NCBI GenBank assembly: GCA_964057225.1
Contig: OZ059897.1
Span: 18,290,001 to 18,354,000 of the forward strand
DNA length: 64,000 nucleotides
Direction: 5' to 3'
Source: Auanema rhodensis
Lineage: Eukaryota; Animalia; Nematoda
The number at the start of each line of letters is the position of its first letter. Position 1 is the stretch's first letter. A model generated the notes under the pieces. That model made no database searches. It worked only from the letters and a program-made list of their open reading frames with translations, and had not been told where the DNA came from. A program made the position numbers and the translations under genes. Positions 51,001-64,000 of this stretch are shown here, one piece after another.

Positions 51001-54000
51001 AATCTGATAACACAGATCGACGCAGCTTAAAAATCCGCATCGAATGCTTTATACTACATTGAGAAACGCTTAATACAAAAATTAGTTATGATCGTTTGAA
51101 AAATGATGCATTAGTGTATGTTGAGTTTCCATGTACACTCAACATTGCTTCCAAAAACATTTTGACAAAAATTTTTTCGAAAAATTTCAAAATAATTTAG
51201 CAAAAAGTAGATGTTTTTAGATTCCATTTTTCAAGGCAAAGACGATGGACAATGTTATTCAACGAAAAAATTAATTCTTCAGGGTGAAAATCGAGGATAT
51301 AAGTGTGAACTTATATCAGTTGATATCTCGGTGCATTTTTAAGCTAGCGCAAATCTGATAACACAGATCGACGCAGCTTAAAAATCCGCATCGAATGCAC
51401 TATATTACATTGAGAAACGCTTAATACAAAAATTAGTTATGATCGTTTGAAAAATGATGCATTAGTGTATGTTGAGTTTCCATGTACACTCAACATTGCT
51501 TCCAAAAACATTTTGACAAAAATTTTTGCGAAAAATTTCAAAATAATTTAGCAAAAAGTAGATGTTTTTAGATTCCATTTTTCAAGGCAAAGACGATGGA
51601 CAATGTTATTCAACGAAAAAATTAATTCTTCAGGGTGAAAATCGAGGATATAAGTGTGAACTTATATCAGTTGATATCTCGGTGCATTTTTAAGCTAGCG
51701 CAAATCTGATAACACAGATCGACGCAGCTTAAAAATCCGCATCGAATGCACTATACTACATCGAGAAACGCTCAATACAAAAATTAGTTATAATCGTTTG
51801 AAAAATGATGCATTAGTGTATGTTGAGTTTCCATGTACACTCAACATTGCTTCCAAAAACATTTTGACAAAAATTTTTTCGAAAAATTTCAAAATAATTT
51901 AGCAAAAAGTAGATGTTTTTAGATTTCATTTTTCAAGGCAAAGACGATGGACAATGTTATTCAACGAAAAAATTAATTCTTCAGGGTGAAAATCGAGGAT
52001 ATAAGTGTGAACTTATATCAGTTGATATCTCGGTGCATTTTTAAGCTAGCGCAAATCTGATAACACAGATCGACGCAGCTTAAAAATCCGCATCGAATGC
52101 ACTATACTACATTGAGAAACGCTTAATACAAAAATTAGTTATGATCGTTTGAAAAATGATGCATTAGTGTATGTTGAGTTTCCATGTACACTCAATATTG
52201 CTTCCAAAAACATTTTGACAAAAATGTTTTCGAAAAATTTCAAAATAATTTAGCAAAAAGTAGATGTTTTTAGATTTCTTTTTTCAAGGCAAAGACGATG
52301 GACAATGTTATTCAACGAAAAAATCATTTCTTCAGGGTGAAAATCGAGGATATAAGTGTGAACTTATATCAGTTGATATCTGGGTGCATTTTTAAGCTAG
52401 CGCAAATCTGATAACACAGATCGACGCAGCTTAAAAATCCGCATCGAATGCACTATACTACATTGAGAAACGCTTAATACATAAATTAGTTATGATCGTT
52501 TGAAAAATGATGCATTAGTGTATGTTGAGTTTCCATGTACACTCAACATTGCTTCCAAAAACATTTTGACAAAAATTTTTTCGAAAAATTTCGAAATAAT
52601 TTAGCAAAAAGTAGATGTTTTTAGATTCCATTTTTCAAGGCAAAGACGATAGACAATGTTATTCAACGAAAAAATTAATTCTTCAGGGTGAAAATCGAGG
52701 ATATAAGTGTGAACTTATATCAGTTGATATCTCGGTGCATTTTTAAGCTAGCGCAAATCTGATAACACAGATCGACGCAGCTTAAAAATCCGCATCGAAT
52801 GCACTATACTACATTGAGAAACGCTTAATACAAAAATTAGTTATAATCGTTTGAAAAATGATGCATTAGTGTATGTTGAGTTTCCATGTACACTCAACAT
52901 TGCTTCCAAAAACATTTTGACAAAAATTTTTTCGAAAAATTTCAAAATAATTTAGCAAAAAGTAGATGTGTTTAGATTCCATTTTTCAAGGCAAAGACGA
53001 TAGACAATGTTATTCAACGAAAAAATTAATTCTTTAGGGTGAAAATCGAGGATATAAGTGTGAACTTATATCAGTTGATATCTCGGTGCATTTTTAAGCT
53101 AGCGCAAATCTGATAACACAGATCGACGCAGCTTAAAAATCCGCATCGAATGCTTTATACTACATTGAGAAACGCTTAATACAAAAATTAGTTATGATCG
53201 TTTGAAAAATGATGCATTAGTGTATGTTGAGTTTCCATGTACACTCAACATTGCTTCCAAAAACATTTTGACAAAAATTTTTTCGAAAAATTTCAAAATA
53301 ATTTAGCAAAAAGTAGATGTTTTTAGATTCCATTTTTCAAGGCAAAGACGATGGACAATGTTATTCAACGAAAAAATTAATTCTTCAGGGTGAAAATCGA
53401 GGATATAAGTGTGAACTTATATCAGTTGATATCTCGGTGCATTTTTAAGCTAGCGCAAATCTGATAACACAGATCGACGCAGCTTAAAAATCCGCATCGA
53501 ATGCACTATACTACATTGAGAAACGCTTAATACAAAAATTAGTTATGATCGTTTGAAAAATGATGCATTAGTGTATGTTGAGTTTCCATGTACACTCAAC
53601 ATTGCTTCCAAAAACATTTTGACAAAAATTTTTGCGAAAAATTTCAAAATAATTTAGCAAAAAGTAGATGTTTTTAGATTCCATTTTTCAAGGCAAAGAC
53701 GATGGACAATGTTATTCAACGAAAAAATTAATTCTTCAGGGTGAAAATCGAGGATATAAGTGTGAACTTATATCAGTTGATATCTCGGTGCATTTTTAAG
53801 CTAGCGCAAATCTGATAACACAGATCGACGCAGCTTAAAAATCCGCATCGAATGCACTATACTACATCGAGAAACGCTCAATACAAAAATTAGTTATAAT
53901 CGTTTGAAAAATGATGCATTAGTGTATGTTGAGTTTCCATGTACACTCAACATTGCTTCCAAAAACATTTTGACAAAAATTTTTTCGAAAAATTTCAAAA

Positions 54001-54056
54001 TAATTTAGCAAAAAGTAGATGTTTTTAGATTTCATTTTTCAAGGCAAAGACGATGG
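1..54056. repeat. Tandem satellite DNA array, 351-bp monomer, 154 copies (+2 bp), continuing off the left edge
   Basis: (G/A)GACAATGTTATTCAACG recurs at 1, 352, ... 7021, 14041, 21061, 28081, 35101, 42121, 49141 (every 20 monomers = 7020 bp). Monomer 155 starts at 54055 (1+154x351) and is cut after GG. Copies differ only by a few recurrent substitutions. Confidence 0.99.
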
Positions 54057-54080
54057 CGTTCCATTCGGAGACTCTATATA

Positions 54081-54741
54081 TGTAACTGCAGGGTTAGAGC
54101 CAGACCGACTAGAGGAATGAGGAATGGCACCGCCTTCCCTCATGCCCCTATTCGGGAGTTCGCCCCTTTGCAAGCCCATGGACGGTTTGCATCTAACTTA
54201 GTTAATCTTATATATTAGTCTTTGTCTTGTAAATGTAGTTTACTTTATCCTTGTGTTAATGTATTGTAATGATATTGTATTGTGTATAATAAACCTATAT
54301 ATTTCCTTATCTTATGTAATCCTTATGCTCTGTTTCCATACCGCTACACTTATGGAATACTATACGCGTAGTTGAGCAGACTACAATGGTCTGTTCAATA
54401 TACGTAGGAGCATAATGGAACGTGGAGGTTCCACCTCGAACTCATTTTTGTCGCAAAAACTCGCATAAAAAGTCCATATTTTGATATCTAAATTAAAACT
54501 TCCTCCACGGTTAGCAACATAATGAGGGCGCCAACTTGTATAAGGTGCAGGTACAAGGGATCTCTCTTTTAGAGAGCTAGGACTACATAATTTTGAAATT
54601 TCACCCGCTGTCCCCACTCATAAAACCGTCTGAGTGTCCACCCTTATAATACCGTATCCTGCACCGCTTCTCTTGCATTTTTTTTTGAGGACGTTTGGAT
54701 CGAAATAGGGGACAATTTCACCAAACGAAATTTTGATTACA
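54081..54741 (+). repeat. 5' LTR (661 bp by TGTAA...TTACA termini; shared sequence actually starts at 54057)
   Basis: Starts TGTAAC and ends ATTACA (5-bp terminal inverted repeat). AATAAA at 54288-54293. No difference seen by eye from 63094-63754. Exact termini uncertain (see findings). Confidence 0.75.
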
Positions 54742-54749
54742 TTATTATT

Positions 54750-54761
54750 TGGCAACGAGGA
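54750..54761 (+). promoter_or_regulatory. Primer binding site, tRNA-Ser(GCT)-like
   Basis: TGGCAACGAGGA, 8 nt after TTACA. One mismatch to TGGCGACGAGGA, the complement of the metazoan tRNA-Ser(GCT) 3' end as I recall it. The host tRNA is not available to check. Confidence 0.65.
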
Positions 54762-55383
54762 GTTAGAATGAAATTTTGAAAGCGCACAAAGTTTAATATT
54801 TTATTGTGGTCAGGACTAGAGATTTGAAAGTTAAATTCAGGCGTAAAAGAGCATGCTAACTAAATATTTTTGCGGGAGCCGTTATTCGGTTTTTATTTTT
54901 TTTTTGATTGTGAGAATAGACCACACTAGTCCGAAAAATCCTGGCACAAATTTTATTGCCTGTCAGGTCATTTTGGCGAAAGCACATGGGCTACGGATGT
55001 TTTCTTCTCCGTAGAATGTGTCACCTTCCTCAGCTCATTTTTGTTGCTAACATCATAAGATATTCCCACACACCTACCGTAGTATTCATATTGTAATATT
55101 CTATAAATTAGTAGAATGGTTTAAAGAAAAAAATTGCGTTTTATAAACGAGCTTTGGTCTCAGTCCATTAGTAAAATGAGCAATCTTTTTAAATATTCTC
55201 GGAATCTCATTAGCATGCCAAAATCATTCCGAAAAAGAATCGCCCACGGCTTTTAATAATAACGTGCACATGAGCCATTTTCCCAAGGCGCACGCACTCC
55301 TTCTTTATTAATAAGCTCGACCAAAGTTTGTGTTATGGAAAAAAAAAAAAAAGAGAGAGAGAACAAATGAGTGAAATTAAGTA

Positions 55384-55389
55384 TTTATT
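55384..55389 (-). terminator. Polyadenylation signal of the antisense gene
   Basis: AATAAA on the minus strand (TTTATT on plus), 16 nt after the TAA stop, followed by a U/CU-rich tract (plus-strand A-run and AG repeats, ~55339-55362). Confidence 0.6.
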
Positions 55390-55405
55390 ATATATGAAAC
55401 AATTG

Positions 55406-55774
55406 TTAAAAGCCCCATTTAAAATGCAACTGTCTCACAAATTCTATAGGCTGTGAGATGGGCTCATCGCTAGGCTCTAAATACTGCGAATACACCGAAT
55501 CCGCAGAGGTCCTTAGCAATAAGCCCATAGGAGACTGTTCATAAAATAAATAAATTTTAAACAAAATTTTAGACATATAATCATAAAAATCATGAGACTT
55601 ATGCTCATACCAATTCCAAGGGGATGCGACCAGATTTGGGTTTTCATACCAATGCGCGCACAAGTCGGTGAGGCACCATCGCCGGATAGCTGCAACCTCA
55701 TCCGCTATTTCCTGCATTAGGGAGAAGTTTACTAATCCCCTTCCCAGATAATGCATCTTTAAATCCTCAATAAA
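55406..55774 (-). CDS. Antisense accessory gene, exon 2 (FIEDLKMHYLGRG...HFKWGF*); unknown function
   Basis: The 116-aa ORF in the track extends 6 codons upstream to an AATTTTTAG acceptor (AG at 55776-55775) in phase 0. Protein-like composition. Confidence 0.7.
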   Translation of the reverse strand, partial: FIEDLKMHYLGRGLVNFSLMQEIADEVAAIRRWCLTDLCAHWYENPNLVASPWNWYEHKSHDFYDYMSKILFKIYLFYEQSPMGLLLRTSADSVYSQYLEPSDEPISQPIEFVRQLHFKWGF

Positions 55775-55819
55775 CTAAAAATTCTTATTAAGATAACATG
55801 TTTCTTTGTTTTAACCAAC

Positions 55820-55939
55820 CATCTTAATTATGTCTGGGTGCGGCCTATAAGCTAACACTTCGTCTTGATCATACAAGACGAGGTCAGCGTACAGCTTCCT
55901 CAAGACAAAAGTCATTCCCGATAGACCTTCATAAGCCAT
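55820..55939 (-). CDS. Antisense accessory gene, exon 1 (MAYEGLSGMTFVLRKLYADLVLYDQDEVLAYRPHPDIIKM)
   Basis: ATG in an A-rich context (AAATCAAAGA ATG G), 40 open codons ending ATG|GTTGGT. The 45-nt intron 55819-55775 joins it in frame to exon 2, giving 162 aa. Confidence 0.65.
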
Positions 55940-56352
55940 TCTTTGATTTATTTTTTTTTTTCAGCTCTACAAATATAAAGATTCTTATGCATAAAAAGGG
56001 GACATAAAACGACTGAAAATCTCTCTCATACTTTCAAGAATTCAATTAGAGTAAAGTATTAAGATTGAGGCTAGAAAGAGCGAAGACCAAAAAAAATTTA
56101 TAATTGATGAACATCTGTGAAATAGAATAAAGAAAAGAGAATACGGTAGATAGGCGGAGCCAGATCTCAGGCCAAGATTTTAAAACTCTTTCTCATCTAA
56201 TAACGATTCTCGGCGAAAGACGCCACGTCTCAATCTTCAAACGTTTCTTACTTTTCCTATAACCGACCCGAATTTCTTGTCACTCATTCAACGTCAACAT
56301 CCCCCATATAACGAAACACTCGCGGTTTTTCCGAACCAAGAGTGATTCCAAA

Positions 56353-59300
56353 GTGGCACGAAGATACTCTTCGGCCGTCCCTGCTCTATACCCTTCTGAG
56401 TCCAGTGACGACATCGCAGTCGCCAGTCGAACCAGAAGCCGCACTCGACTCCTCAGTGTTCAGATTGAAGAGCCTGAACAAGAGGTAAAACCCAAAGTCG
56501 AGAAAACCTTCATTCCTCGAGAAGGCACGTATTCACCTCCGGACAACACCGAGGAGGACCCTGATTTCTATATTCAGGACTACAATATTCAAACTTCAGC
56601 TTCAACTCCAAAGATAATACCGCTTATAAAGGCCAGACGAGCTGTCAACCCTTCATATTCAATTATTGACTGGGTTTCAGCACATCCCGAGAAGTTTTAT
56701 TTCTTCTTAAGAAGTCCCGTATCTGATAAATCCATACAACGTTTCCTTCAAACATACGAAATACACGACCCTGAGGAAGCAATACTTTATTTTCTTGCGC
56801 AAAAGGAACTGGCAGCAACCACTCGCGGCGCTATACGGTATTTAACCTCACAACAATTATTAGAACAGATAGGTGACAGATTAACAGCACACGAATTTGA
56901 CGAAAAACTGCTAGAAAAAGACGGATCCTACCGTGAAAGAGCCGAAAGCATAGCGATGGAGTTAGCTTATACACCGGTAATATTTGAAAACAATCTGTCG
57001 GTACCATCAAGGCAAGAGGTTTTAAAATCCTTTGTGAACATGCCGCCGATCCGACCAACTCTAACAACTGACAATGCTGATGAGCGTATAGTACTTAGAA
57101 ACACTCTTTACTTATACCATAACTTGATGACATTGCGAGTAATAAGGCCAAATAAAACAGCAGCAGCCGTAGATGATGAAAAGTTCCGACAATTAACAAT
57201 CAATGTGCCAGATACCAACAAATTATATCGAGATAAAGATTCTAACTACGGTATATCGATAGGGCCCCACCCTCGCATTCAAAACCCAAGCGCAGATACA
57301 CGCCAGCTACTTATAAAAACATTTTTACCACTGTTAGAGGATATTGAAACACCGCCTTATCTGACTAGAAGACTGTCATTAACGACAACAACGGACAAAC
57401 CCGCTTCACTAGTTCAGGAGACAACTAAAAGCCATACGACTCGGATTCCGACGACAACCACAGTTGAGACGACAACAGCCGCGATAACTACGACTCTCTC
57501 GCCAACAACATTAGCAACAGTCACTGACACGGCGTCACGAATCTTAAGGAAACAAAGAACATCATCTCCACCCGTAGAAACCAGAGAAATTCAGGCTCAG
57601 GCAACGTATACAGCGTCAAAAGTGAACAACGAAATACAATTCAACCTCAACGTATCTCGCAGAATAGCTCAAGATCATCTACAATATACAACAACACTCA
57701 TACAAGAAGAGCTACAGAAACATTTCATGGAATCTTATGAATCCATATGTGAGATTCAAAATAGATACCTCGAGCTATGGCGTTCTATTTTACACATAGA
57801 ACCTACAATAGCAATGAGGACTATTTTAGGAAGAGAGGATATTGCAGCCCGTTTCGTAGGCAGCGATATAGTTCATGTTCATATATGCCTACCTCTTCAA
57901 CCTAAAGCTGTTTATCATAATCATAAGATCAATGATACATGCTATTTGGAAACACCAGTAATAACAGAAGATGAGAGATTATATTTTGCTGCTCCAGGAT
58001 CAAGAGACTTATTAACACATGGAAAAGAGATAGATTGCGAACATGTACCCACAGATGTATACTATCAAAATGGAGAATGGATAAATATAAATGGATCGGT
58101 TGAAGTAAAACCAATATCACTCTTTGATAAAGCGCAATACCACCAATTAACACCTTTAAAGTTCACAGGCGCTAACTTATACACCAATTTATCATTGAGA
58201 GTTTACTCAATGTCAACAGCTATTGCATATGGAGCAAGTTTAGCATCCATACGACAGAACCATGTTTTACATACTATTCACAACGATCCAAAAATTACGT
58301 CCGCCTTTAATCTTTTGAAAAAGGGCAGTGACTATATCTCTAAAGCAGCTGAGTTCACAACTTCCGCCTGGACTAGCGTAAAGCAATTTCTAATAGGATC
58401 AATTGAGAGAACACTCATCTTCATAGGATCAATGGTTACGATTGCCGCAGTATTAATAATTCTTTTCGTTGTTGCTAAATTTTGGTTCTTCAGAGCCACT
58501 CCACTAACCGTAATGCATGTCCACGAAATAGATAATGAGCCCCCAAGCTATGAAGAAACATTGGAACTTGTAAGCCGCCCAGACCAACAGATGCCAGATA
58601 ACATCATGAAGCAATACTATCCTGCTTTAGTAACATTTATTCCAATCGCAATACCATTTGTTGCTTCTATTGTATCAGCGGAAACAAAGTTACCATTAAT
58701 ATATATATCAGTTGAAGATAAACTGATTTTAGCTTTATGGGATTCAGGCTCATCAGTGTCATATGTTAGGCTCTCCACCCTCAAATATCTGAACATGGCC
58801 GAAAATGTCAAGAAGAGACATTTAGTAGCGATGGCAGCCAACAAGTCCACTTTCACATTTTATGGAAAGATAAATCTTGTAATTGAAATTGCCGGTTACG
58901 AGATCGAACACACCTTTTTGGTCTCAAACGATCATGACTGTCCTGCTCCCGCTTTAATTGGACTAGATTTCATGAAAGCGCTTGACAGCGAAAACATCGA
59001 CGTCAGCCTTAAACCATCCAAGAAGAGGTTGGAGATTGGAAACAATGCCATCCCATTAATAGGAAACGAATCTATTAAGCATACGGAGATAACTGTGAAT
59101 ATCATTAATTTAAGAACAAAAACATTAAAGCCTGATGAAGAGGCACCTATCCCAATAAAGACAGATAAACCACTAGAATCTAACGAAGTGGTTGTCTTAG
59201 GGGATAGTGGAAGCGCATTAAAATCATTATATCCAACTGCGTTTCGTGATACCAGTGGAGTATATGTTATGTTCCGTAACAATACCGATGAAACAATAGC

Positions 59301-62300
59301 TATGGAAGCTAATTCAGTCATCGGACAGGCAATAATTGGAGAAATTCCGGCTTGTGAACCCTTTAAGCATAAGCCAATTCTACCATATGTTCCGCCAGAG
59401 GCCGATTGGGAGAGTAAACTACCATATTTTCCAAGAGACTTCATAAAAGATCTTGATCTAGAGAATGCTGATCTCACGAAAGAAGAAAAACATGAGCTTA
59501 CAAAAATAATTGAAAGCCATCGTGAGGCATTTCTTAACGAGGACAGGAAAATAGGCTTATTTAAAGGTCCTATAGAGCATACCATACCATTGAGAACAGA
59601 TATGGATATGCCAAAGCCGAGAATAACACGTATTCCCTTAGGAAAACAGGAAGAAATTGAAAAACAAGTCAAAGAAATGCTTGAGCAAGGCATAATAGAG
59701 CCTTCTACATCTCTATTTAATAGCCCTGTAGTACTAGTTAAGAAGAAAGATGACACGTATAGGTTTGTGACAGATTTTCGAGCTTTAAATAATGTCACAC
59801 GCAAGCAAACTTATGTCATTCCAAGCATTTCTGACATAGTTGATTTGGCAGCAGGCGCCCAATTTTTCTCAAACTTCGATTTAGTGTCAGGATTTTTTCA
59901 AATATCCTTGAGAAAATCAGATCGACCACTAACAGCATTTACGACCACATCCGGCACATACCAGTACAAACGGATGCCGATGGGCCTTTGTGGAGCCCCT
60001 CATACCTTTCAAACAGCAGTAAGGTATTTGCAAAGTAAATGTTCTTGTAAACTATTTGTTTATTTGGACGATCTATTAGTTATATCTGATACAAGAGAAC
60101 AACATCTCAAAGATATCGATGATTTACTGCAAGCAGTAGAAGAATTGGGAATGAAGATAAAGCTTAAGAAATGCGCTTTTGCTCAACCAGAAGTGAAATT
60201 TCTAGGACTTATTGTAGGACGTCAAGGTATAAAACCTGACCCTCAAAAAGTCGCCGCCATACAAGATTATCCGGCACCAAAGAATGCAACAGGTGTACGA
60301 GCATTCTTGGGAATGGTTGGATTCTTTCGCAAATTCATGAAAGATTTTGCACGTATCGCAAGCCCTTTATACGATCTGACAAAGGCAGATACTGAATTCA
60401 AATGGGAAAACAAACATCAAGAAGCTTTAGACCTCCTTAAAAGAAGTTTAATACAGGCACCCGTTTTAAGCCCACCTAAATCGGACCGCTTGTTTATAGT
60501 TGAAAGCGACGGTAGTAACATCGCCATAGGTGCTGTATTATTACAACCGGAAGATCCAAAACAACCTCTGAAAAATCTACACCCTATCGCATTTGCAAGC
60601 AGAAAACTAGTTAAAGCCGAACGTAACTACGCACCAATCGAGATAGAAGCATTAGGCCTTGTATATGCATTAAATCAATTCCGTACATACATTCTTGGAA
60701 CTCATACTATATGTATTACGGACCATCGACCTCTTACCAGCTTAATGACACGCAGAGACTTATTTGGTCGTCTTGCGAAGTTCCAGCTGGTCATCCAAGA
60801 ATATGATATTGAAATAAAATATCGCGCAGGCCAATTAAATAAAGTATGCGATGCTCTATCTCGATATATAGGTGAAGAAGCTAACGATGCTAAGCCGGAA
60901 ACAAAGAAGAAGAAAATGGAAGAAATTCACATTAACGCCATAAATACACCAACAATAAAGGAAATTCAACTAAGCACCCCTTGGATTAAACGGACGATAG
61001 CGGAGATTGAATATAGAGCACAAAAGAACATGACAGCTAATGACAGATATTGTGTCATAAATGACTTGCTCTATACAAAACCAACAGACAAAAAGCCACA
61101 ACCCGCTATCGTAATACCACAAGAACACCCCATAATTGAGGAAATAATCAAAGTTTTTCATGAGGATCCTACAATTGCAGCACATCAAGGAATTATTAAA
61201 ACAAAAGAAGCAATTCTAAGAAGATTCTATTGGACAAATATGCAGAACGACATTACTATATTCATCAAGAACTGCATTAAATGTGCTCAAAGAAAAAAAG
61301 ATCCACATTCCATGACGGTACAACCAATAGGTCATTTTGAGATACCAAGCAAGCCATTTGAACGAGTCCACATGGACGTAATGGGACCATTTCCCCCTTC
61401 AAAAAGAAACTGTACCTACGTCATTACCATGCAAGACGCATTTACAAAATGGTCAACAACAATTGCTGTACCACAAATAACAACGGAAATCACAATTGAT
61501 CGATTTCTAAGACATTTCGTTTACATTTTTGGACCACCCCATCGCTTGATCACCGATAGAGGTTCAAACTTTGTATCTAAAAAGTTCGAAGAAATGTGTA
61601 CTAAACTTGGAATCAAACATGAACCAACACTACCACACCAAAAGAACTCAAATGGACAAGTGGAAAGACTTCACCGAACCCTCGAAGAAGGATTAACCCA
61701 CTACTTAAAAGAGGACCTTAGTGACTGGGATACTGTATTACCAAAAATCACTTTTGCTATTAACAATATTCAGCACGCGACTACAGGGATTGCGCCATAC
61801 ATTGCATTATTCGGTAAAGAATGCAGAATGTCAATGGACGCTGAATTACCAGAAACGATCACCAAAATTCAAGAAATTTCTGAAGAATTACTCCAAAGAA
61901 GACCAGATATGGACAAGAGAGACGAAATAATAAAGAACCGCATAGCTAAAAATCAAGAAAATGCGAAAAAGAAGAAAGATAGAACGCAAAGAGCACACCA
62001 TAGAGACATTCAACCGGGCGACATGGTGATGACGACTATAAAATCACACCAAATCGGCCAAAAGCTTCGGAAAAGCTATGATGGACCATGCGAAGTCATC
62101 AACGTAGAAGGATCAAAAGTTCAAATCAGAAATTCATCAGGAAAACTACAAGATATCCACAAAGATAACTTGAAAATCTTCTCTCCTGCTTCACAAAACA
62201 TCTCTTACAACACTCGCGCAAGGTTTCGAGAAAGTCAAGCAGAAGAAGATAGCGACATCGAAATAATAGAAGTGATCAACAGGAACAACAAGGATAGCAT

Positions 62301-62364
62301 AGATACAGAGCCAGAAGATGAAAATGAAGACGAAATATGGCTTCCGAGGAATGAAGAAGAATAA
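56353..62364 (+). CDS. pol: Retroelement polyprotein: unknown N-terminal domain + gB-like envelope half + protease + RT + RNase H + integrase
   Basis: Uninterrupted frame (open from 56263). The track start is GTG and the first in-frame ATG is at 56956, so the true start is uncertain. Catalytic motifs are intact. Confidence 0.93.
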   Translation: MARRYSSAVPALYPSESSDDIAVASRTRSRTRLLSVQIEEPEQEVKPKVEKTFIPREGTYSPPDNTEEDPDFYIQDYNIQTSASTPKIIPLIKARRAVNPSYSIIDWVSAHPEKFYFFLRSPVSDKSIQRFLQTYEIHDPEEAILYFLAQKELAATTRGAIRYLTSQQLLEQIGDRLTAHEFDEKLLEKDGSYRERAESIAMELAYTPVIFENNLSVPSRQEVLKSFVNMPPIRPTLTTDNADERIVLRNTLYLYHNLMTLRVIRPNKTAAAVDDEKFRQLTINVPDTNKLYRDKDSNYGISIGPHPRIQNPSADTRQLLIKTFLPLLEDIETPPYLTRRLSLTTTTDKPASLVQETTKSHTTRIPTTTTVETTTAAITTTLSPTTLATVTDTASRILRKQRTSSPPVETREIQAQATYTASKVNNEIQFNLNVSRRIAQDHLQYTTTLIQEELQKHFMESYESICEIQNRYLELWRSILHIEPTIAMRTILGREDIAARFVGSDIVHVHICLPLQPKAVYHNHKINDTCYLETPVITEDERLYFAAPGSRDLLTHGKEIDCEHVPTDVYYQNGEWININGSVEVKPISLFDKAQYHQLTPLKFTGANLYTNLSLRVYSMSTAIAYGASLASIRQNHVLHTIHNDPKITSAFNLLKKGSDYISKAAEFTTSAWTSVKQFLIGSIERTLIFIGSMVTIAAVLIILFVVAKFWFFRATPLTVMHVHEIDNEPPSYEETLELVSRPDQQMPDNIMKQYYPALVTFIPIAIPFVASIVSAETKLPLIYISVEDKLILALWDSGSSVSYVRLSTLKYLNMAENVKKRHLVAMAANKSTFTFYGKINLVIEIAGYEIEHTFLVSNDHDCPAPALIGLDFMKALDSENIDVSLKPSKKRLEIGNNAIPLIGNESIKHTEITVNIINLRTKTLKPDEEAPIPIKTDKPLESNEVVVLGDSGSALKSLYPTAFRDTSGVYVMFRNNTDETIAMEANSVIGQAIIGEIPACEPFKHKPILPYVPPEADWESKLPYFPRDFIKDLDLENADLTKEEKHELTKIIESHREAFLNEDRKIGLFKGPIEHTIPLRTDMDMPKPRITRIPLGKQEEIEKQVKEMLEQGIIEPSTSLFNSPVVLVKKKDDTYRFVTDFRALNNVTRKQTYVIPSISDIVDLAAGAQFFSNFDLVSGFFQISLRKSDRPLTAFTTTSGTYQYKRMPMGLCGAPHTFQTAVRYLQSKCSCKLFVYLDDLLVISDTREQHLKDIDDLLQAVEELGMKIKLKKCAFAQPEVKFLGLIVGRQGIKPDPQKVAAIQDYPAPKNATGVRAFLGMVGFFRKFMKDFARIASPLYDLTKADTEFKWENKHQEALDLLKRSLIQAPVLSPPKSDRLFIVESDGSNIAIGAVLLQPEDPKQPLKNLHPIAFASRKLVKAERNYAPIEIEALGLVYALNQFRTYILGTHTICITDHRPLTSLMTRRDLFGRLAKFQLVIQEYDIEIKYRAGQLNKVCDALSRYIGEEANDAKPETKKKKMEEIHINAINTPTIKEIQLSTPWIKRTIAEIEYRAQKNMTANDRYCVINDLLYTKPTDKKPQPAIVIPQEHPIIEEIIKVFHEDPTIAAHQGIIKTKEAILRRFYWTNMQNDITIFIKNCIKCAQRKKDPHSMTVQPIGHFEIPSKPFERVHMDVMGPFPPSKRNCTYVITMQDAFTKWSTTIAVPQITTEITIDRFLRHFVYIFGPPHRLITDRGSNFVSKKFEEMCTKLGIKHEPTLPHQKNSNGQVERLHRTLEEGLTHYLKEDLSDWDTVLPKITFAINNIQHATTGIAPYIALFGKECRMSMDAELPETITKIQEISEELLQRRPDMDKRDEIIKNRIAKNQENAKKKKDRTQRAHHRDIQPGDMVMTTIKSHQIGQKLRKSYDGPCEVINVEGSKVQIRNSSGKLQDIHKDNLKIFSPASQNISYNTRARFRESQAEEDSDIEIIEVINRNNKDSIDTEPEDENEDEIWLPRNEEE
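57559..58491 (+). other. env: Envelope-like domain: herpesvirus gB / class III fusogen C-terminal half with TM anchor
   Basis: ICEIQNRYLELWRSILHIEPTIAMRTILGREDIAARFVGSDIVHVHIC...DTCYLETPV parallels HSV gB WCELQNHELTLW...LNP...GRRVSARMLGDVMAVSTC...CYSRPLV. N-glycosylation sequons NVS, NDT, NGS, NLS. Hydrophobic helix at 58411-58491. Confidence 0.8.
58690..59060 (+). other. Retropepsin aspartic protease domain
   Basis: ALWDSGSSVSYV (Asp codon at 58741) and downstream ALIGLDFM. Boundaries approximate. Confidence 0.92.
59620..60220 (+). other. Reverse transcriptase domain
   Basis: SPVVLVKKKDDTYRFVTDFRALN, FDLVSGFFQI, MPMGLCGAP, YLDD at 60061-60072. Boundaries approximate. Confidence 0.97.
60490..60870 (+). 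other. RNase H domain
   Basis: ESDGSNIAIGAVL, IAFASRKL, ERNYAPIEIEAL, TDHRPL, NKVCDALSR. Confidence 0.95.
61050..62180 (+). other. Integrase (HHCC zinc finger, DDE core, GPY/F-like module; no chromodomain, acidic tail)
   Basis: FHEDPTIAAHQG...CIKC; HMDVMGP, TDRGSNF, VERLHRTL; YDGPCEV. Confidence 0.95.
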
Positions 62365-63058
62365 CAACAAGATAATGCTACGTTATTTAAATTATTGTAA
62401 CAAAATAACGATGAATTAAAAAAAAAAAAAAAAAATTAATGCTAAATAACATTCAAAATAAAAATAGCATTTAATAGAGATTGAGAAAGGAAAAATAAGG
62501 CAAATTCTAAACGAGGAGATGTTATGACTAATGGTTCCAAGTTACCGTAATCCTATGCGGACTAGAGGACATTTTGACAACCATCCGAGCTCCATGTGCC
62601 TCTCCAAATAAGATGAGATGAACACTGGTAGGCGTATCAACCACAATTTCATCTTAAGTGGTAGTCTCCATTAGTAATCAAGGATTCACTCTGGGAGACA
62701 TATGGAGACACATTATTAAATCATAATCTCGGTTCAATTTAGAAATGAGTACTTCTTGAGACCATTAGTCAAAATAATAACATATTCCCATTCATTACTA
62801 GCCCCTTTATTCTACAATCTCTATTAGGAAATGCTTGAATATTAAGATAATTAATTTATGAAATTAATAATATTCTAATTCATCGTCCCTTCATATTATA
62901 TTGAACCCTTCTTATAAATTATTGTAATTTTGTTTGTATACTAACTAAAACTCTATCATACTATAGTTATTGTGAAGCTAAAACAATTGAACTCTAAAAC
63001 TCAGTTACATATAAGCCCAAATTTTTGTTTAAAATATCGCGAGGTCGCGACAATCTTT

Positions 63059-63067
63059 GAAAAAGGG
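63059..63067 (+). promoter_or_regulatory. Polypurine tract
   Basis: GAAAAAGGG ends 2 nt before the start of the duplicated sequence (63070) and 26 nt before TGTAAC. Confidence 0.55.
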
Positions 63068-63093
63068 CACGTTCCATTCGGAGACTCTATATA

Positions 63094-63754
63094 TGTAACT
63101 GCAGGGTTAGAGCCAGACCGACTAGAGGAATGAGGAATGGCACCGCCTTCCCTCATGCCCCTATTCGGGAGTTCGCCCCTTTGCAAGCCCATGGACGGTT
63201 TGCATCTAACTTAGTTAATCTTATATATTAGTCTTTGTCTTGTAAATGTAGTTTACTTTATCCTTGTGTTAATGTATTGTAATGATATTGTATTGTGTAT
63301 AATAAACCTATATATTTCCTTATCTTATGTAATCCTTATGCTCTGTTTCCATACCGCTACACTTATGGAATACTATACGCGTAGTTGAGCAGACTACAAT
63401 GGTCTGTTCAATATACGTAGGAGCATAATGGAACGTGGAGGTTCCACCTCGAACTCATTTTTGTCGCAAAAACTCGCATAAAAAGTCCATATTTTGATAT
63501 CTAAATTAAAACTTCCTCCACGGTTAGCAACATAATGAGGGCGCCAACTTGTATAAGGTGCAGGTACAAGGGATCTCTCTTTTAGAGAGCTAGGACTACA
63601 TAATTTTGAAATTTCACCCGCTGTCCCCACTCATAAAACCGTCTGAGTGTCCACCCTTATAATACCGTATCCTGCACCGCTTCTCTTGCATTTTTTTTTG
63701 AGGACGTTTGGATCGAAATAGGGGACAATTTCACCAAACGAAATTTTGATTACA
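63094..63754 (+). repeat. Second LTR (shared between tandem units)
   Basis: Copy of 54081-54741 at offset 9013. The same 78-aa shadow ORF and the same 9-T run occur in both. Confidence 0.8.
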
Positions 63755-64000
63755 TTATTATTTGGCAACGAGGAGTTAGAATGAAATTTTGAAAGCGCAC
63801 AAAGTTTAATATTTTATTGTGGTCAGGACTAGAGATTTGAAAGTTAAATTCAGGCGTAAAAGAGCATGCTAACTAAATATTTTTGCGGGAGCCGTTATTC
63901 GGTTTTTATTTTTTTTTTGATTGTGAGAATAGACCACACTAGTCCGAAAAATCCTGGCACAAATTTTATTGCCTGTCAGGTCATTTTGGCGAAAGCACAT
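63755..64000 (+). mobile_element. Start of a second tandem unit (PBS at 63763-63774 + leader), truncated by the window end
   Basis: 63755-64000 repeats 54742-54987 instead of returning to satellite. Confidence 0.7.

Follow-up and report, generated by a model that had tools for sequence, protein, structure and literature searches.

Does the leader of a nematode retroelement conceal, on the strand opposite to its own polyprotein, an intron-containing gene, and what could the product of such a gene do? The question is raised by a stretch of Auanema rhodensis DNA of 64,000 nucleotides (assembly GCA_964057225.1, contig OZ059897.1, positions 18,290,001 to 18,354,000), here called the window, in which an initial annotation, made from the letters alone, had proposed an antisense gene of this kind. 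Accessory genes are means by which retroelements get past host control. To our knowledge, very few of them are known in animals outside the vertebrate retroviruses, and those studied so far in nematodes are CERV and SDG-1.

The candidate gene sits in an LTR element that adjoins a satellite array, with the following layout:

1-54056, no strand: array of a 351-bp satellite, 154 copies at a spacing of 351, ending at the junction 54056/54057
54057-54422, plus strand: 5' LTR, 366 bp, identical to 63070-63435
54423-54434, plus strand: primer-binding site for tRNA-Gln, 12 nt, next to the LTR
56263-62364, plus strand: env-pol frame, 2033 codons, comprising 117 unassigned codons, the C-terminal half of Env, TM, PR, RT, RNase H and integrase
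63056-63069, plus strand: predicted PPT, a purine-rich sequence before the second LTR
63070-63435, plus strand: second LTR, identical to the first
63436-64000, plus strand: second primer site and leader of a tandem second unit, by repeat identity to the window's end

The 30 satellite copies listed, of the 154, share 97-100% identity. Each LTR has a 9-nt perfect terminal inverted repeat, and AATAAA is found at 54288. Both LTRs have CG..CG ends, inside this inverted repeat, instead of the usual TG..CA. From 54057 and from 63070 the sequence is identical for 931 nt, up to the window's end and hence past the second LTR, which shows that a tandem second unit follows. A tandem array of LTR, internal part, LTR and internal part adjoins the satellite, and its end lies beyond the window. 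Public contigs from four probable-RNA runs cover the stretch; all four belong to one study, and the RNA label is the tool's guess. A contig of one run (X4) departs from the window sequence exactly at 63435. An alternative layout, with the LTR starting at 62521 and a primer site at 54750, was overruled by the 9-nt repeat, the tRNA-Gln site and this loose end at 63435.

As further observations on these contigs, they fork exactly at the LTR start, 63070, and long contigs in runs X2 and X3 span 59932-63099, that is, the 3' part of pol and the 3' non-coding part up to the LTR. The latter (62365-63055, from the polyprotein stop to the PPT) is a 0.7-kb A+T-rich stretch with no ORF above 66 codons. 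Contigs of other sequence match only 54408-54441, the LTR end and the primer site, which suggests that the organism harbours another, related element family.

The affiliation of the element is clear. In its env-pol frame Pfam recognises Monjiviricetes_fusion at residues 473-613 (E 4e-15), followed in order by protease, RT, RH and rve, and Glycoprotein_B at 470-556, below its curated cut-off. A weak dUTPase-like match (E 0.084, below cut-off) lies between protease and RT at 59122-59343 (P0001 residues 954-1027). The best relatives of the frame are polyproteins of rhabditid nematodes with 34-50% identity. In a quick IQ-TREE analysis of RT/RH with 42 rows (the window and 41 of 120 listed hits; P0004 was left out since it lacks RT), the window falls into a set of 12 rows with an SH-aLRT of 100, together with 10 named nematode proteins and one other. 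The reverse complement of the primer site equals the 12-nt tRNA-Gln end of two Caenorhabditis elements, and tRNA-Gln is the primer in 8 of the 30 nematode rows shown, of 36, in the same table (PMC13524379, supplement file 2). With a gB-type Env upstream of PR-RT-RH-IN, the RT/RH clade, the LTR pair and the tRNA primer, the element belongs to the GAG-ENV-POL Ty3/gypsy group of that report, the nematode errantiviruses with an Env of the HSV gB type (PMC13524379, there citing Sacco et al. 2022).

In the leader of this element, between the primer site and the env-pol frame, the minus strand reads as follows:

55940-56262, minus strand: predicted promoter and 5' leader of the antisense gene, with TATAAA at 56102
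55820-55939, minus strand: exon 1, 120 nt, ATG and 39 codons, known from the sequence and from its joint to exon 2 in contigs
55775-55819, minus strand: intron, 45 nt, GT..AG, phase 0, skipped in contigs of three of the four runs
55406-55774, minus strand: exon 2, 122 codons and TAA (at 55406), with the homologue P0125
55384-55389, minus strand: AATAAA, predicted poly(A) signal, from the sequence
55339-55352, minus strand: U tract downstream of the poly(A) signal

On re-check every coordinate that the initial annotation had given (ATG, exons, intron, TAA, AATAAA) proved correct. The ATG at 55939-55937 follows an A-rich run, the intron holds two in-frame stops, and the spliced product has 40 + 122 = 162 amino acids, among them 5 W, 13 Y and 9 F. 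The G+C content (0.44 in exon 1, 0.22 in the intron, 0.40 in exon 2 and 0.21 in the 3' flank) is the pattern of a gene, and the spliced model shows a codon-position composition bias. No sense ORF of more than 59 codons overlaps it. Exon 2 alone is within chance: when the 1.84-kb leader was shuffled 1000 times with its dinucleotides kept, 71 of the shuffles contained an ORF of at least 122 codons. ATG-to-stop models that reach 162 or more codons by splicing were found in only 3 of 1000 such shuffles, and in none of 1000 shuffles of the local stretch 55300-56262. A second antisense frame, 292 codons at 58932-59810, was rejected as a gene, being a shadow of pol without Pfam match. On the sense strand the leader holds 24 ATGs, and three AATAAA (55545, 55769, 56126) through which the genomic RNA must read.

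The contigs argue directly for splicing. In three of the four runs they join 55774 to 55820 and skip the 45 nt between, which have CT..AC ends; the joint is flanked by 78, 229 and 57 letters in the three contigs, at a depth of 3.9-6.2, and is not covered among the pieces listed for the fourth run. It is the only joint among those listed for 54000-64000. The contigs themselves carry no strand or level information; because CT..AC is GT..AG on the minus strand, the transcript must come from there. The junction on which the initial annotation had staked its gene, naming a lack of spliced minus-strand reads as the sign against it, is hence present. Upstream of the ATG, acceptor-like sites end at 55967, 56013 and 56115. 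Near these there is no loose end among those listed, and two contigs continue without splicing from 55820, one to 56170 and the other to 56368, so that no SL leader is seen, though contigs leave room for one. At the other end, the bins 54668-55335 have zero depth in all four runs, and part of this stretch also fits the second copy; the hole would fit a transcript end near AATAAA but by itself proves nothing.

As an aORF, the gene lies between the LTRs and outside gag, pol and env (55406-55939), and the minus-strand splice joint, in three of the four probable-RNA runs of one study, indicates transcription from its own strand. Splice joint, shuffle statistics, homologue and position between the primer site at 54423 and the ORF at 56263 together bear out the central proposal of the initial annotation, an intron-containing antisense gene in a retroelement leader. 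The gene is real and spliced, and it probably codes for a protein.

A HMMER scan with exon 2 as query against the full set of 1.84 billion representatives returned one match (E 4e-38), with 59% identity over all 122 residues. This homologue, P0125, is a singleton of 125 amino acids on a Logan contig of 1035 nt. In the alignment 72 of 125 positions are identical, gaps are of one residue only, and both proteins stop at the same C-terminal residue. The three extra N-terminal residues of P0125, M-F-Q, fall at the acceptor of the window gene. The consensus of nematode splice acceptors is TTTCAG, and M-F-Q fits an ORF call that starts at an ATG within an intron with this end; the intron position is therefore probably common to both genes, as far as protein letters can tell.

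The protein itself appears to be under constraint. In a neutral-decay null run to the identity of P0125, 132 of 5000 sequences stayed free of stops, a test biased by P0125 having itself been found as an ORF, and 253 of 5000 were as conservative. W/C/F/Y/H were kept equally well by 338 of the 5000 neutral sequences, and their retention is not unusual. The signal is modest, and selection on the antisense protein is likely but not proven. The family around it seems small. A profile of exon 2 and P0125 retrieved one of 248 candidates, P0125 itself, among near lengths only, and none of 92 stretches in metagenome contigs. Searches for related loci gave none in 453 stretches of metagenome contigs, nor in viral contigs (0 of 21, 0 of 2 and 0 of 38). 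A word-indexed protein search, again of near lengths only, gave no candidate, the 121 compared proteins held no match, and the database searches showed no homologue of exon 1. Named proteins of any host did not match either, as is expected if the gene is restricted to elements. By these searches the antisense protein would represent an unnamed two-member family.

What kind of protein is it? Pfam assigned no family to exon 1, exon 2, the read-through or P0125. The single PHROGs match (E 0.34) and the best matches among PDB sequences (E 0.98 in one search, and E 0.14 in another with pertussis toxin S3 chains and others) are not significant. The top ESM Atlas hits, Peptidase S28 (0.76) and DUF3800 (0.81), were discarded, since they disagree with each other and both lie within the range of shuffled proteins. 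A displaced piece of Gag or Env was likewise considered as its identity and gave no match. The AlphaFold2 models are all helical and of low confidence (pLDDT 41.5 and 53.5); with them Foldseek, run on the viral and PDB libraries, gave no match at E 0.001, and the best VIA fold search hit had a Z of 5.3 at an rmsd of 5.8. Blank fold searches with such models do not show a new fold, and nothing in the fold points to silencing, given the low confidence. Profile search and structure prediction, which the initial annotation had named as checks, hence yielded one homologue but neither a family nor a fold. With 22 D+E against 14 K+R the protein is acidic and has no basic cluster, and its maximal 19-residue hydropathy is 0.9, with no hydrophobic, TM or signal segment. 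For a soluble, acidic and aromatic protein of this type, protein binding is likelier than direct RNA binding. At the RNA level Rfam gave no match in 53000-64000, and a tRNA gene scan found none.

The element that carries the gene, with its identical LTRs, is young but gag-less. No Pfam family for Gag is found in the env-pol frame, while Retrotrans_gag is present in two relatives, P0007 and P0010. The match to P0004, the closest relative, starts only at residue 487 of that protein, at window position 56602, and a comparison with 12 relatives in six frames gave nothing significant to the left of this position. The first Met of the frame is codon 232. Between 56263 and 56613, 117 codons are open in frame with env-pol, as in 113 of 20000 shuffles; they contain no ATG in any sense frame, and no homology was found for them. 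The copy thus holds neither an intact Gag nor a full Env: it is a defective derivative without Gag and without the N-terminal half of Env. The loss may have come about via deletion or via spliced RNA. The distance from LTR to LTR is 9013, and of eight tRNA-Gln relatives (PMC13524379) seven exceed this by 1.0-4.2 kb and one falls below it. At 56613, where the Env homology begins, contigs in three of the four runs depart from the window sequence, and a second form with a different continuation must therefore exist in the same organism. By eye, the gene models P0006 and P0008 also appear to start mid-Env without Gag, which may be an annotation effect or recurrent truncation.

How, then, can the gene be understood? 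With a confidence somewhat better than even, we consider it a dedicated accessory gene, borne by the element and having its own transcript. An internal antisense promoter (TATAAA at 56102) would produce a separate polyadenylated mRNA that ends near 55370, about 0.9 kb before it would reach the primer site. Placed antisense, the gene would add no sense reading frame before the polyprotein. Its intron would not be read as such on the genomic RNA and, not being removed, would be copied with the element, so that the gene could travel intact in each cycle. Retrotransposition reporters follow the same logic: in them an intron is lost only if it lies in sense to the element RNA (PMC12786077). The idea of the initial annotation that antisense orientation protects the intron from loss during reverse transcription stands insofar as the orientation permits it; that the orientation was selected for this purpose does not follow. 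Several points speak against the accessory-gene reading: there is but one homologue, on a contig of 1035 nt, so that its linkage to related elements is at most presumed; the copy is defective; the selection signal is modest; and the departures at 56613 would also be expected if the left part came from a host locus.

As to function, we tentatively suggest, by analogy to SDG-1 and as a minority view within the accessory-gene reading, a counter-silencing adaptor. The soluble, acidic and aromatic protein might be a small, helical adaptor that works in trans to weaken host silencing of the element. SDG-1, encoded in Cer9, is located close to germ granules and lowers RNAi slightly (PMC11793870, PMC13277809), and VANC of plants offers a further analogy (PMC13547354). 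The loss of sdg-1 has a weak effect on RNAi (PMC13277809), which counts against the counter-silencing function.

The main rival, which we hold to be rather unlikely, is that a host gene or pre-mRNA was captured by template switching in antisense, beside gag or in its place, and is now a passenger of a defective lineage; the spliced contigs may then stem from the host original. The lack of Gag and of half the Env keeps this reading alive, the more so as the missing parts are right beside the antisense gene, and it would also account for the loose end at 56613 in three of the four runs and for the host-like intron and poly(A) signal. LTR-mediated capture is moreover known to replace internal element sequence (PMC5131818). 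Yet the captured copies described there stem from mRNAs, no named host protein matches, and the 117 open codons to the left of 56613 look like element coding sequence. The longer LTR-to-LTR distance in seven of the eight relatives fits a simple loss of gag and env, with the long leader already present.

Next after the counter-silencing adaptor we place a role on the RNA or particle of the element (export, splicing control or assembly) similar to CERV or Rev, a doubtful variant whose weight is contained in that of the accessory gene. A dedicated export protein, CERV, is needed by a nematode Ty3/gypsy element (PMC10309623), and the sense ATGs and AATAAA signals of the leader mean that the genomic RNA needs handling. 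CERV, however, is large, sense-encoded and nuclear (PMC10309623), whereas the antisense protein is acidic, has no basic cluster and matches no family or fold.

It is improbable that the antisense RNA is itself the functional product, pairing with the leader of the genomic RNA to regulate it while the frame is incidental or decaying. The transcript is indeed the complement of the leader, antisense RNAs that do not code for protein are known from LTR elements such as micropia and Ty1 (PMC12786077, PMC7264820), and exon 2 alone is of a length that shuffles reach. The conservation at the protein level, with frame-keeping gaps and the same stop in P0125, the rarity of the spliced model in shuffles, the codon-position bias and the blank Rfam search all speak for a protein. 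It is very improbable, lastly, that the protein forms half of a drive or toxin-antidote system favouring hosts that keep the element: nematode toxin-antidote pairs are orphan genes, and a small orphan on an element that is defective, in tandem and newly inserted would suit this, but the element has no second extra gene, only short ORFs, and the protein has no TM segment and no enzyme match.

In summary, the dedicated accessory gene remains our preferred reading. ORF-only annotation would miss this antisense gene, which has splice support and a conserved relative and belongs to no known family. That it is the first of a new counter-silencing family, hidden with its intron on the antisense leader strand of nematode GAG-ENV-POL retroviruses, is unlikely when taken as a whole. 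If it were true, the roughly 3 kb beyond the polyprotein in such elements would harbour accessory genes that annotation has passed over, and copies without gag would spread as satellites that deliver genes. The finding raises the question of whether antisense leader genes are the rule in nematode elements with a gB-type Env, and what the targets of their proteins are.

HTLV-1 HBZ, a spliced gene whose product contains a bZIP domain, is likewise an antisense protein-coding gene in a provirus. The initial annotation had called the two analogous in position, which is incorrect: genes of the HBZ type lie at the 3' end, whereas about 7.1 kb separate the window gene, which is part of the 5' leader and has no bZIP match, from the second LTR. 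HBZ is driven from the 3' LTR (PMC7264820). Antisense extra ORFs inside LTR elements, some with their own promoter as is predicted here, are also described as aORFs in plants and fungi (Grande gene23, RIRE2, Retand, PvRetro13, Boty brtn), but they lie mostly 3' of pol (PMC7264820). Rotifer LTR elements carry enzyme ORFs (PMC5408684), and Cer19-ORF2 is an extra gene in a nematode LTR element (PMC7084138). Extra genes in retroelements are thus a known kind; no published account of this protein family, or of an antisense gene with an intron within the 5' leader of a nematode gB-Env element, came to light, as far as the excerpted literature reaches. The word "antisense" is absent from the main text of PMC13524379, and the excerpts of that report describe no extra leader gene. 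With its errantiviruses the element shares Env before Pol in one frame, the tRNA-Gln site, the LTR of about 370 bp and the RT clade; unlike them, the window copy is without Gag and half the Env.

CERV of Cer1 compares with the candidate protein as an accessory protein that a nematode Ty3/gypsy element makes from spliced RNA, but it is large, encoded in sense by five exons, shares exons with gag and uses an ORF 3' of pol (PMC10309623). The database searches, with P0125 as the only sequence match, and Pfam, which assigned no family, gave no sign of kinship between the antisense protein and SDG-1, CERV or HBZ, and its models are too weak for a call on the fold. The element group also differs from that of sdg-1 and its paralogues, since Cer8 and Cer9 are BEL/Pao elements. 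SDG-1 is a protein of about 35 kDa, against about 19 kDa here, and database searches gave no sequence match between the two. Beyond these differences, the window gene resembles sdg-1, ZK262.8 and C03A7.2, which with others are extra genes of Cer8/Cer9 (PMC13277809): like them it is an orphan coding gene that lies within an LTR element of a nematode and yields spliced transcripts, with a low-confidence AlphaFold model and a separate protein product (PMC11793870, PMC13277809).
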